Source: Escherichia phage LF82-1. Taken from it: a stretch of 64,000 nucleotides of DNA. Position numbers and translations under genes: made by a program. The notes under the pieces were generated by a model. It did not search any database. It had not been told where the DNA came from and was given only the letters and a program-made list of their open reading frames with translations. The DNA lies in sequence record PV648359; one strand, 5' to 3'. Positions 15,049-18,376 of this stretch are shown in pieces. Each line of letters opens with the position of its first letter. Within the stretch, counting starts at the first letter, position 1.

Positions 15049-15353
15049 TATAATATTCTCTCAAATTTGTGGAAGCATTTACGGCATTTCAATTTCAAGT
15101 TATCAGTGGTCCAGTTAACCAGTTGGACTTGGATAGTTCCACATTCCGGGCATGGATGTTTTGCTGCTGATTTGGCAGCATTTTCACGTCGTTCAACCAT
15201 TTTCATTATTTCGTTCCATGCTGGAGGAACGAACTCTTCTTCACCGTGGATTTTATCTCGCTGAACAAATTCAATCTTTGAACTATCGTCAATAAACTTA
15301 ACCAAGCCATGATTAGTGCTCATATCAATATCCTCTAAAAGACGTAGTTTCAT
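15048..15353 (-). CDS. hypothetical protein with C-terminal Cys4 zinc-ribbon-like motif
   Basis: 101 aa; CPECG…(17)…CRKC. Confidence 0.55.
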   Translation of the reverse strand: MKLRLLEDIDMSTNHGLVKFIDDSSKIEFVQRDKIHGEEEFVPPAWNEIMKMVERRENAAKSAAKHPCPECGTIQVQLVNWTTDNLKLKCRKCFHKFERIL

Positions 15354-16303
15354 TATAACACCTCAATGGCATTTCGTAAACCGTCCGCTTTCGCATTCAG
15401 AGCTTTTAACGATTTAGTCTGTTCTTTAATCTGGGCTTCGACTTCTTTCAGACGAGATTTGAGATATTCACGTTCTTCGCTCAAGTTGTCAACTTTTTCT
15501 ACTTTAGGTTCTTTAATAGTCTTAAGTTTATACTCGTTAGGGTTCTTCAGCTTAATTCGGGTGCGAGAACTGTATAACATTGAACCGTTATCTTCGGATT
15601 CGTCGAACGTTTCAACAACATCCATAGTCTCTAACAATGTAATAAGTTTATAAGACAATGAACGAACGGTTTTGTTATGCTTATTAATTTCTTCAGCTTT
15701 CATGGTACCGAGATTACGTGAGTAGTAATAAGGAACCTGGATATCAATTGATAATGATGCGTTACCATTACCGGTCGGTTTGAATACTGCAGTAACCCAA
15801 TCTTTAACATGAACTTTATTTGTACGACCATCACCGCCCGTGAATAATTTACGAGAATGTTTAAAAAGCATATTCACTTGGTTATTGAATTCACAAGCAA
15901 ATTTATCAGCGAATTTAGTTTCAGGAATGGTAGATAACCAATCAGCCAAATGAGTCTTTTTAACATCATTAATAATAGTGAATTCAACCAAATCAGTTTT
16001 AGATGTCACAGATTTAATAAAGCTCGGTTTCATAAAGTTTTTAATGTTATCGCGAGCTACAGTAGAAGATAATAAACGAGAACGTTTGAACCATTGAAGC
16101 AGTGTCCCTAATGAATGAGAATACGCATTCTGAGTATCTTTACAGATATGATTTTCTTGACCTGTGTATGTACCAAAATCGCGAAGAATACCACTTACTA
16201 CATCTCGGTGTGGAACATCAAATCCTAGTGCACCAACAGCGCGCTGGGCACGAACGTTAGCGATAAGACCGGCAAAGTATTCAATGTAATGTGAACGTGT
16301 CAT
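15353..16303 (-). CDS. hypothetical 316-aa protein with C-terminal coiled coil
   Basis: ORF with own upstream GTTTAC/TATAAT promoter; no recognisable catalytic motif. Confidence 0.6.
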   Translation of the reverse strand: MTRSHYIEYFAGLIANVRAQRAVGALGFDVPHRDVVSGILRDFGTYTGQENHICKDTQNAYSHSLGTLLQWFKRSRLLSSTVARDNIKNFMKPSFIKSVTSKTDLVEFTIINDVKKTHLADWLSTIPETKFADKFACEFNNQVNMLFKHSRKLFTGGDGRTNKVHVKDWVTAVFKPTGNGNASLSIDIQVPYYYSRNLGTMKAEEINKHNKTVRSLSYKLITLLETMDVVETFDESEDNGSMLYSSRTRIKLKNPNEYKLKTIKEPKVEKVDNLSEEREYLKSRLKEVEAQIKEQTKSLKALNAKADGLRNAIEVL

Positions 16304-16331
16304 AATATTTTCCTCTCGTTAAGATAGATTT

Positions 16332-16361
16332 ATTATACTCCAACCATCCTTGGTTGTAAAC
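16332..16361 (-). promoter_or_regulatory. T4-type early promoter (GTTTAC -35 / TATAAT -10) with embedded CAACCA-N4-TGGTTG hairpin
   Basis: Element upstream of 15353..16303; near-identical copy at 17352..17381. Confidence 0.5.
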
Positions 16362-16365
16362 CGTT

Positions 16366-17325
16366 TTATGATTTTAATGCATTCATTGCATTAAAAAGTT
16401 TAGAGTACTGCAACTGGAGATTCGTTACAACACTTTGAGCATCACGAAGCTTAGCTTGTGCTTTGTCAAGTTCAACGGACAGTTGGTCTGCAGTAGCCTT
16501 GATTTGGTTGTAATGATAATCTTCGGCCGGAAGAAGGTCATTAGAAACATTTAGTTTTACTGCCGACAGTTTGCACACATTTGGCAAACCTTTAAACATA
16601 CCGGGTTGTGTCGGAGAATATGCGCTTAGAACCTCTGCATTACCGACTGGTGTTGCTGTAATATTGCCTTCAAACAATGCATTTTCCTTTTTAAGATTTT
16701 GATAGTATTCAGAGTCTTTGTGCCACCATGGCGCAGGAACCTTTTTACCAATAGATACACGAGCCTGGATAGCGATATGGCCCTTATTCTTGATAGGGTC
16801 GATAATATTAAGCTCACGAGAATAAATTGCTTTAATTTGGTGAATATTATCACCTAACACTTCCAACGCTTGGTGGAATACACGAGCAACGTTATCGTTC
16901 TTAGGTTTATATGTAAGAGTGAACTCGTTCTCACTGATAACCATGATTTCTAACTTATCGTAAGTATATTTCAAATGTTTCATGTTAATTGCTTGAGGAC
17001 GAATACGAGAAGCAATGGCCATCAGATTGTTAAGGTTATTTCGGAACTGTTTAGCGAAATATTGTCCTTCACCGCCGATACAAAAATTACGAAGTTTCTG
17101 TTTGGCTAATAAACGGCTGAACTCACCATTTTTAATGAACTCTTTAACGGGTGTGTTAGTAATGCATTCAAATTGAGTAAACATACGAGAATTAATCCCA
17201 TAATATGAACAGATTTCCTCAATCTCTTCAGGAGTCTTTACAGGCATACGGATAGGATTAGGTCCTGGAGTATATGCGTTCGAGGTAAATTCTTTGATAA
17301 GTTCTCTACGTGTAATAAAAGCCAT
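16366..17325 (-). CDS. hypothetical 319-aa protein with C-terminal coiled coil
   Basis: ORF with ATG start; same promoter module upstream. Confidence 0.6.
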   Translation of the reverse strand: MAFITRRELIKEFTSNAYTPGPNPIRMPVKTPEEIEEICSYYGINSRMFTQFECITNTPVKEFIKNGEFSRLLAKQKLRNFCIGGEGQYFAKQFRNNLNNLMAIASRIRPQAINMKHLKYTYDKLEIMVISENEFTLTYKPKNDNVARVFHQALEVLGDNIHQIKAIYSRELNIIDPIKNKGHIAIQARVSIGKKVPAPWWHKDSEYYQNLKKENALFEGNITATPVGNAEVLSAYSPTQPGMFKGLPNVCKLSAVKLNVSNDLLPAEDYHYNQIKATADQLSVELDKAQAKLRDAQSVVTNLQLQYSKLFNAMNALKS

Positions 17326-17351
17326 TTTATATTCCTCATGTTGAAAAATTT

Positions 17352-17381
17352 ATTATACTCCAACCATCCTTGGTTGTACAT
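17352..17381 (-). promoter_or_regulatory. promoter/stem-loop module, second copy (-35 variant GTACAT)
   Basis: attatactccaaccatccttggttgta shared with 16332..16361; overlaps the stop of the upstream gene. Confidence 0.4.
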
Positions 17382-18376
17382 CATTCCTTAAGAAGTTTTA
17401 CTACTTGAATAAGATTAGCTCGTTCTGTTTTATTTTTACCGTTTAAGCCTGCTAATCGTGAGATTTCATCGTCAGTCTGTTGAATAGTTACATTAAGTTC
17501 GTTAATCAAAGCTTCAAAGTATTTGATTTGCTCAGCATGTTTTGATTCAAATTTCTGAACCGGAATAACGTCTTGGTTCAGTCCATCAATAAGGTCTTTA
17601 AGAGCATCTTCTTGGTTGATATCATATTCAACTTCCTTTATTTCTTCAACGAGCTCGTCTTTATATCTAACGTCTTTTAGTCCTGGTGCTGGTCCTGAAA
17701 TCTCTTCTTTAAGAGTACAAACATACCCAATACGGTATCCAATGCCGTCTCGCTTGATATCAACTTCGTCGATAAATCCACAATGTTTAAGTCCAGAGCC
17801 GATTATGTCAAAATATCCTTGACGACGTCCTTCAAACGTTACACGAACTACTAAGACAGTTTTGCCACCGACCTTTTGAAGCTCACATTTATAAAAGTCC
17901 GTTGAACCTGAATAACGTGGATGAGTTTTAAAGTTCATCTGACGATCTAGGCCCATTTGTAAACGTGCTGTTACGGCCATAAAACGTGTTTGGTTCTCGT
18001 TAAGATGAGCAACAATCCATTTCAAAGGCATTTTACACTGTTCACGACCGAACAAATCAGTACGTCCTAGATTACGCAGGATGTTGTTAGAGTTAATCAT
18101 CGACAGAACGTTAAGTTTATTCAACGCGCTGAAGATTCCGTCAGCCATTGATTTTCCATAACCTTTACACGCTTTAATAAGTGCTCGCGGCAGATTAGTA
18201 TAGATTTCAGACGGCATATGAAAATCAAATTTACTAGTCAGTAATTGATGAACTTGGATAGCAATTTGCTCATAATTAAGTGCTCTGCGATCGTTATGGT
18301 CTTTAAACCACACTTTAATCTGTGAAGCACATAAACCGTTAATTTCATGTTTTACCGCATCAGATGTAATGCTCAT
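17381..18376 (-). CDS. hypothetical 331-aa protein with C-terminal coiled coil
   Basis: ORF with ATG start. Confidence 0.6.
   Translation of the reverse strand: MSITSDAVKHEINGLCASQIKVWFKDHNDRRALNYEQIAIQVHQLLTSKFDFHMPSEIYTNLPRALIKACKGYGKSMADGIFSALNKLNVLSMINSNNILRNLGRTDLFGREQCKMPLKWIVAHLNENQTRFMAVTARLQMGLDRQMNFKTHPRYSGSTDFYKCELQKVGGKTVLVVRVTFEGRRQGYFDIIGSGLKHCGFIDEVDIKRDGIGYRIGYVCTLKEEISGPAPGLKDVRYKDELVEEIKEVEYDINQEDALKDLIDGLNQDVIPVQKFESKHAEQIKYFEALINELNVTIQQTDDEISRLAGLNGKNKTERANLIQVVKLLKE

Follow-up and report, generated by a model that had tools for sequence, protein, structure and literature searches.

In the 64,000-nucleotide stretch of Escherichia phage LF82-1 (sequence record PV648359), called the window below, three consecutive open reading frames (ORFs) are identified by sequence comparison as nrdC.3, nrdC.5 and nrdC.6, accessory genes of T-even phages, in their RB69/Mosigvirus form. 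Their products of 316, 319 and 331 amino acids (aa) are referred to here as w316, w319 and w331, respectively, and the array is located in the hyperplastic region between nrdC and nrdC.8. With a probability of roughly 0.6, we read the three as T-even accessory genes that carry their own portable promoter cassettes, are exchanged whole, and most likely serve a counter-defence or host-range function. The feature is real but largely catalogued, since the genes are named T-even genes, their Pfam and PHROG families are known and so are the classes of their promoter cassettes; the shuffling by PeSL promoter cassettes and the anti-defence function of one of the genes have already been published for this region. 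It is not a new kind of system; the array probably consists of counter-defence genes that have been shuffled. Our analysis adds the cassette-exact presence/absence polymorphism of w319 in Mosigviruses, the paralogy of NrdC.3 and NrdC.4, evidence against swapping at the level of domains, and a covarying hairpin embedded in the promoter spacer.

Gene identities and protein families

The window matched Escherichia phage LF82-x genomes, LF82-2 among them, at 100% identity and other RB69-like T-even phages at ~97-98%; on this comparison the phage is an RB69-like Mosigvirus of the T4 type. All three ORFs were found at the coordinates given in the first-pass annotation (15353-16303, 16366-17325 and 17381-18376); they were uninterrupted, started with ATG, lay on the minus strand and had the lengths given above, and each was preceded at 7-9 nucleotides (nt) by a GAGG-type Shine-Dalgarno (SD) sequence. 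The gene order on the minus strand is nrdC.11, nrdC.10, nrdC.9, nrdC.8, w331, w319, w316, nrdC.2, a gene for a NrdC.7-like membrane protein, and nrdC.

The nrdC.3 ortholog w316 (15353..16303, minus strand) was 56% identical to T4 NrdC.3 over its full length of 316 aa (E=1e-118) and 91.5% identical to RB69 nrdC.3, and matched PHROG 1435 (E=1e-101). All w316 homologs carry PF26897, the family of T4 NrdC.3 and NrdC.4, according to precomputed annotation. The protein comprises a family-specific N-terminal domain, a variable linker and a C-terminal coiled coil at aa 275-315 (nt 15356-15481), and its stop codon runs into the start of the nrdC.2 ortholog (15048-15353). Several 101-aa proteins annotated as NrdC.2, the product of that neighbouring gene, share the 90%-identity cluster of w316, probably through a clustering artefact or fused gene calls.

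The second gene, w319 (16366..17325, minus strand; C-terminal coiled coil at aa 268-319, nt 16369-16524), belongs to the nrdC.5 family. Residues 15-318 aligned with positions 1-307 of the Pfam model DUF7235 (PF23882; E=1.8e-119, 399 bits with a cut-off of 30), the model that T4 NrdC.5 matches with E=5e-126 and 421 bits, so that both lie on it end to end. The RB69 copy of the gene is annotated NrdC.5, the homolog P0052 is RB69 NrdC.5, and the synteny agrees with that of the DUF7235/NrdC.5 family: when compared with the gene orders of T4, VR7, LYE-01 and Pinarejo, w319 occupied the same slot downstream of nrdC.6, between it and nrdC.4/nrdC.3. The coiled coils of both proteins also end in a similar motif (...LNNALNALN and ...LFNAMNALKS). 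They differ in that w319 is only 26% identical to T4 NrdC.5 over 308 aa, representing an RB69-type allele class barely connected to the T4 class by tblastn, and in that w319 lies between identical promoter repeats as an optional cassette.

The third gene, w331 (17381..18376, minus strand), is the nrdC.6 ortholog and was 97.9% identical to RB69 nrdC.6. Identity to T4-type NrdC.6 amounted to 32-33% over residues 27-330, i.e., 92% of the length (tblastn, E ~1e-26), and to 29% in blastp (E=4e-18). The protein matched PHROG 2257 (E=5e-127), its homologs carry PF26899, the family of T4 NrdC.6, and the gene lies directly downstream of the nrdC.8/nrdC.7 promoter, as expected of the NrdC.6 family; like w316, it shares the genomic neighbourhood of its T4 ortholog. 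After an acidic linker, the C-terminus (aa 281-331, nt 17384-17536) is helical and rich in heptads, interrupted at GLNGKN, and compared with T4-type NrdC.6, w331 has an extra segment of ~50 aa made up of the acidic linker and a longer helix. With regard to clear homology with distinct, well-characterised T4 proteins, a point raised in the first-pass annotation, each ORF is clearly homologous to a named T4 gene of its own; of these genes, nrdC.5 alone has a phenotype that has been characterised.

In GenBank and UniRef the three ORFs are named "hypothetical" or "thioredoxin", and many records label homologs of nrdC.2 to nrdC.11 "thioredoxin". A thioredoxin or glutaredoxin identity was rejected: no Pfam or NCBIfam thioredoxin/glutaredoxin model matched at E<=0.1 and the translations contained no CxxC. 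The label seems to have been propagated from the nrdC.x locus names. No enzyme family was matched by any of the three ORFs, in line with the absence of a catalytic motif noted earlier, and PDB sequence searches, NCBIfam and PADLOC gave no meaningful match for the three proteins.

All-against-all alignment and profile comparison revealed no significant pairwise similarity among w316, w319 and w331, which bears out the first-pass impression that their N-terminal domains are mutually dissimilar. At the family level, NrdC.3 and NrdC.4 proved to be paralogous (hhalign probability 96-98% over ~220-245 columns). NrdC.4 and NrdC.5 were aligned with 81% probability over 127 columns in one comparison, a value that fell to 40% with the N-terminal domains alone and to 1.8% with a merged NrdC.3+4 profile. 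No link was found by hhalign between NrdC.6 and any other family (probability at most 8.5%). Local iterative searches with hidden Markov models merged NrdC.5 with NrdC.3/4; this result was discarded as unreliable, as strict and merged profiles did not reproduce it, and the merging was probably driven by coiled-coil composition. The three window ORFs are best described, from their sequences, as three families of common architecture with no demonstrable homology.

By tblastn, all three families were confined to Tevenvirinae of enterobacteria (Tequatrovirus, Mosigvirus, Gaprivervirus and Yersinia T4-like phages). The exhaustive HMMER search of 1.84 billion representative proteins with the NrdC.3 profile yielded five matches: its own cluster, three fragments and one NrdC.4-type protein (E=3e-6). 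No relatives outside the T-even phages were retrieved by word-indexed protein search, IMG/VR pattern scans or exhaustive HMMER, and hence deeper alignments cannot be built. No PDB chain was related by sequence to the three families.

Heptad periodicity was scanned against 500 composition-preserving shuffles per protein, with five neighbouring proteins for comparison. The C-terminal signal noticed in the first-pass annotation was significant in all three proteins (w316, 279-306, p<0.002; w319, 269-319, p<0.002; w331, 281-309, p=0.004), and none of the five neighbours scored above its own null. AlphaFold2 modelled single long C-terminal helices of 41-51 residues in w319 (268-318; predicted local distance difference test score, pLDDT, 58-75) and w316 (275-315; pLDDT ~80-86), from a 12-sequence alignment for w319 and from 18 sequences, one of them a NrdC.4-type protein, for w316. 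These helices and a small alpha/beta unit of w316 (170-255) were the only moderately confident parts of the models.

Promoter cassettes and exchange of whole genes

The first-pass annotation described near-identical promoter/hairpin modules in front of two of the ORFs, and this was borne out by the 27-mer TACAACCAAGGATGGTTGGAGTATAAT (minus strand), which has exactly two copies in the 64 kb (16332-16358 and 17352-17378) against 0 expected by chance. The full identical run is 31 nt long (16328-16358 and 17348-17378), and this identical core flanks w319 on both sides.

Cassette 1 (16304..16365, minus strand), upstream of w316, is a predicted PeSL-like early promoter with the -35 element TTTACA at 16355-16360, the hairpin at 16341-16356, the -10 element TATAAT at 16332-16337, a predicted start at ~16325 and the SD sequence GAGAGGA at 16311-16317. 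Cassette 2 (17326..17380, minus strand), of the same predicted type and upstream of w319, has TGTACA at 17375-17380, the hairpin at 17361-17376, TATAAT at 17352-17357 and a predicted start at ~17345, and its -35 element abuts the stop codon of w331. The sigma-70 matches are TTTACA-17-TATAAT (11/12) in cassette 1 and TGTACA-17-TATAAT (10/12) in cassette 2.

Cassette 3 (18377..18440, minus strand), upstream of w331, is of the middle-promoter type. Its MotA-box-like element AAACGCTTTA (18431-18440) overlaps the stop codon of nrdC.8, and is followed by the hairpin ACCC-AAGGAC-GGGT (18418-18431), TATAAT (18412-18417) and a predicted start at ~18405. The whole arrangement, AAACGCTTTA-CCCAAGGACGGGT-TATAAT, is the positional and sequence ortholog of CCGCTTTA-TACCAAGGATGG-TATAAT upstream of T4 nrdC.7. 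PnrdC.7 is a mapped MotA-dependent middle promoter of T4 with its start at T4 position 53325 (Hinton 2010, PMC2988021), which we found to be the seventh base after the TATAAT of the nrdC.7 cassette. Measured against the MotA rule, (a/t)(a/t)(a/t)TGCTTtA at 12 +/- 1 bp from the -10 element, cassette 3 has AAACGCTTTA, 13 nt and TATAAT, with one mismatch (C for T). Both promoters share the GCTTTA core of the MotA box, 12-13 nt to a perfect TATAAT and the position directly after the nrdC.8 stop codon; they differ in that the window box reads CGCTTTA against the consensus TGCTTtA and in that cassette 3 directly precedes nrdC.6. Since the nrdC.7-like membrane gene sits elsewhere (14635-15048), cassette 3 is predicted to drive nrdC.6 directly in the window phage. 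The first-pass view that each ORF has an expression cassette of its own is consistent with the promoters predicted from sequence, two of the early type (w316 and w319) and one of the middle type (w331).

The PeSL promoter consensus of PST/T4 is TTTACW-N17-TAYWAT (Comeau 2014, PMC4122927), and the two early cassettes fit it. Like the published PeSL cassettes (Arbiol 2010, PMC2839356; Comeau 2014, PMC4122927), they are intergenic, lie in the hyperplastic region between non-essential ORFs, and consist of the promoter followed by an SD sequence and an ATG start codon. Moreover, the gene between the direct repeats is found in some relatives and missing from others, the breakpoint falls within the cassette, and a middle-promoter variant (PmSL-like) occurs in the window as well.

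The array varies in content among T-even phages. T4 has.6,.5,.4 and.3; the window and RB69, and likewise LYE-01, have.6,.5 and.3; VR7 has.6,.5 and.4; ESCO47 and p000v have.6 and.3; ACG-C40 retains.6 plus remnants, and Pinarejo has lost.6 with a remnant left. At 5805-6213 of ACG-C40 a deletion scar joins a 72-aa N-terminal fragment of NrdC.5 to an out-of-frame C-terminal remnant of NrdC.3, and at 6001-6135 of Pinarejo another scar keeps only the last ~45 codons of nrdC.6. Divergent allele classes were found at the same positions, with identities of ~90/75/56% for NrdC.3, 95/32% for NrdC.6 and 87/25% for NrdC.5.

The most informative junction was that of ESCO47. Upstream of it the sequence aligned with the end of w331 and cassette 2 (77.6%), downstream with cassette 1 and into w316 (93.2%), and the two alignment blocks overlapped by exactly the 27-nt cassette. 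The contiguous junction without w319 was present in 21 phage records, and the gene order in p000v is nrdC.8, a 331-aa gene, a 316-aa gene and nrdC.2. In the PeSL model, an ORF is lost or gained when the promoter cassettes on either side of it recombine (Arbiol, PMC2839356; Comeau, PMC4122927), and in RB49/phi1 such recombination was shown experimentally and yields mini-circles (PMC2839356). Judged from the aligned genomes, the geometry of w319 presence and absence is the one that the model predicts, and the unit swapped is the whole gene together with its promoter.

Cassettes 1 and 2 contain a 6-bp hairpin, CAACCA-AGGA-TGGTTG, within the -35/-10 spacer, and all cassettes examined carried a spacer hairpin with an invariant AGGA loop and inner CCA/TGG pairs. 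The outer stems varied compensatorily between phages (CAACCA/TGGTTG, CTTCCA/TGGAGG, ACCCA/TGGGT, CACCA/TGGTG, CCACA/TGTGG, GCCA/TGGC and TACCA/TGGTA). In a 10-sequence alignment, partly chosen by hairpin search and to that extent biased towards pairing, 91.7% of cells were paired compared with 64.8±5.0% in shuffles (0/500 reached the observed value); four of the six stem pairs had changed on both sides, and the covariation score was 0.66 against <=0.18 with partners slid. The strand-asymmetric AGGA loop suggests a role at the level of RNA or of a single strand. The stem is weak (-5 to -8 kcal/mol), and compared with published PeSLs the window hairpin has the conserved AGGA loop and lacks G/C tracts and a U-tail. 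It is unlikely to be an intrinsic terminator, having no U-tract and drawing no call from the terminator scan, and efficient termination like that of the RB49 PeSLs is unlikely too.

On the minus strand of the window, spacer hairpins with an AGGA (or GAGGA) loop occur at 16341-16356, 17361-17376, 18418-18431, 38091-38104 and 12569-12585, and in T4 they are likewise found upstream of nrdC.3, nrdC.4 and nrdC.7. The stem is kept by compensatory changes across T4, RB69-like, VR7-like and ESCO47 phages, whether the spacer separates -35 and -10 elements or a MotA box and a -10 element. In the ...GGAGTATAAT class of cassettes, the tetranucleotide GGAG (16338-16341 and 17358-17361, minus strand) immediately follows the hairpin stem on the 3' side and precedes the -10 element, and it has the same cassette position in T4 and VR7. 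GGAG is recognised by the T4 RegB endoribonuclease and might tag read-through transcripts for processing. Within the 3' end of the w319 coding sequence, at 16372-16396 and just upstream of the -35 element of cassette 1, lies an AT-rich 10-bp inverted repeat, TTTTAATGCA-ttcat-TGCATTAAAA. It occupies the position where PeSL stem-loops have been described and is the main contributor to the intergenic fold z-score of -2.75; no equivalent of this stem-loop was found upstream of cassette 2.

A probable counter-defence role and its alternatives

The cassettes would act both as portable promoters and as short homology patches for recombination by the PeSL mechanism, through which whole genes would be inserted, deleted and exchanged between related phages. 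In each of the three proteins, ~220-260 aa form the family-specific N-terminal domain, and a linker of variable sequence leads to a C-terminal amphipathic helix of 40-50 aa that most likely drives coiled-coil oligomerisation; the proteins are basic and lineage-restricted. A counter-defence role is suggested by lineage restriction, hyper-divergence of the alleles, variable presence, early expression in T4 and anti-defence neighbours. When supplied in trans, T4 nrdC.5 enables a deletion mutant to plate again on cells with the SIR2-type Dsr1 system (Srikant et al., eLife 2022, PMC9391042). T4 nrdC.3, nrdC.4 and nrdC.6 are expressed as early RNA and early protein, nrdC.5 as early RNA and middle protein (PMC9697503 supplements), and of the adjacent T4/T6 gene products, Gp49.2 inhibits OLD (PMC13096335) and NrdC.1 inhibits Septu (bioRxiv 10.1101/2025.11.20.689424). 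As a DUF7235 protein, w319 would be a divergent member of the anti-Dsr1 family, and w316 and w331 would be probable inhibitors of other host factors. We infer a counter-defence or host-range role for these alleles as the best-supported reading; the direct evidence concerns the T4 NrdC.5 homolog only.

Several points weigh against it. At 26% identity to T4 NrdC.5, w319 may have a different target or have lost the activity, and for nrdC.3 and nrdC.6 the anti-defence role would be guilt by association only. The strongly basic character of w316 and w319 would suit nucleic-acid binding too. Our hairpins lie inside the -35/-10 spacer, unlike the published PeSL stem-loop located upstream of the -35 element; the missing U-tract makes a terminator role doubtful, and the sampling bias of the hairpin alignment has to be borne in mind. 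The mean pLDDT of the AlphaFold2 models was low, 40.6 for w319 and 51.4 for w316, because only shallow alignments were possible. Fold searches of BFVD and PDB with these two models returned only their own family or insignificant matches (template modelling scores, TM, <=0.45), and no fold was assigned. With poor models and uninformative fold searches, structure reveals neither a binding nor a catalytic mechanism. Among the weak BFVD matches of the low-confidence w316 model were the 318-aa viral protein E5EYP0 (E=1.6e-4, TM 0.32) and an Aeromonas phage 65.2 protein (E=6e-4), which may represent remote relatives from other T4-like phages or simply reflect the poor model.

The first-pass annotation proposed that N-terminal specificity domains had been swapped on a common C-terminal coiled-coil scaffold. 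Its observation of a modular array with shared architecture in the hyperplastic region holds; the swapping of domains is not supported. All three proteins do have the same size and layout (N-terminal domain, linker, C-terminal heptad helix) with mutually dissimilar N-terminal domains, and weak end-to-end C-terminal alignments were obtained among NrdC.3, NrdC.4 and NrdC.5 (hhalign E ~1e-3, probability 17-20%). However, the C-terminal coiled-coil segments were not significantly similar between any of the families (<=20%). The N- and C-terminal parts co-diverged over the full length (w316/NrdC.3, 2-316; w319/NrdC.5, 60-317; w331/NrdC.6, 27-330), tblastn of 50,697 phage genomes produced essentially full-length matches and no N/C chimeras, and the recombination breakpoints were seen in intergenic cassettes and not in the linker. 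The C-terminus-only matches in ACG-C40 and Pinarejo were rejected as cases of domain swapping, being out-of-frame or unannotated deletion remnants. Shuffling at the level of domains is therefore very improbable. Descent of nrdC.3,.4,.5 and.6 from one ancestor as ancient tandem paralogs diverged beyond sequence recognition deserves more credit, although it stays a tentative proposal; it is compatible with the counter-defence reading. It draws on the NrdC.3/NrdC.4 paralogy, including the recovery of a NrdC.4-type protein by the NrdC.3 profile, on the single 81% alignment of NrdC.4 with NrdC.5, and on genes that are adjacent and alike in length and layout. Against it stand the collapse of that alignment under the stricter comparisons given above, the inconsistent registers between NrdC.3 and NrdC.5, the isolation of NrdC.6 from every other family, and the predicted orders of secondary structures in w316 and w319, which are not obviously the same (both models being poor).

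As to function, the proteins might instead be host-takeover or nucleic-acid-binding factors that modulate transcription, replication or mRNA metabolism rather than inhibit immunity. Early expression in T4, the basic w316 and w319 (isoelectric point 9.3-9.4, net charge +10 to +11), helices for oligomerisation such as many DNA- or RNA-binding regulators have, and the lack of a match to any known anti-defence family all agree with such a role. It is nevertheless unlikely in view of the variable presence of the genes among close relatives infecting the same species and of the deletion tolerated by T4 on laboratory hosts, the nrdC.5 deletion phenotype being host-specific and Dsr1-dependent (PMC9391042); Pfam and NCBIfam scans also detected no nucleic-acid-binding domain. 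A mechanism by acidic DNA mimicry was ruled out, the proteins being basic. An extension of the counter-defence reading, which we hold to be speculative and rather unlikely, sees in the nrdC.3-nrdC.6 block a rapidly diversifying arsenal of coiled-coil inhibitors, each directed against a different immune system, with DUF7235 versus Dsr1 as the first solved case. The AGGA-loop hairpin would then itself be functional and couple expression to mobility; it could serve as a recombination or processing signal, possibly tied to RegB cleavage at the adjacent GGAG.

The counter-defence reading gives a context to three genes that are "hypothetical" or mis-named "thioredoxin" in hundreds of genomes of therapeutic-candidate T-even phages. 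Since the three lie in a proven anti-defence neighbourhood and vary in presence by cassette recombination, and since w319 is a divergent relative of the only known anti-Dsr1 protein, the genes are reasonable candidates for host-range determinants and for screens of defence libraries. The RB69-type and T4-type alleles offer a natural comparison for target specificity.

Neighbouring features

The window phage carries neither nrdC.1, the anti-Septu gene of T4, nor nrdC.4. The nrdC.1 position beside nrdC is occupied by the gene of a 137-aa membrane protein (14635-15048, minus strand) 42% identical to T4 NrdC.7, so nrdC.7 is effectively relocated relative to T4.

In the T4 record NC_000866, the annotated nrdC.6 (locus 9997-10200, minus strand) ends in ...FLFNNMMMKFSDYLD. 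The C-terminus common to w331 and the NrdC.6 relatives (...DDEIFRLSGLSSKAKSEREKLIKIVDLLKS) is encoded in T4 in another frame, reaching the start of nrdC.5; an apparent frameshift or sequencing error removes the helical tail in T4 nrdC.6.

Farther upstream, a GC-rich palindromic hairpin, AAGGGCCCGAAGGCCCTT, lies at 20519-20545 between the nrdC.11 and nrdC.10 orthologs and has a terminator-like score on both strands. Its T4 equivalent is GGGAGCCTTCGGGCTCCC, followed by a T-run, and the window hairpin is probably a real terminator separating the transcription units upstream of the array.

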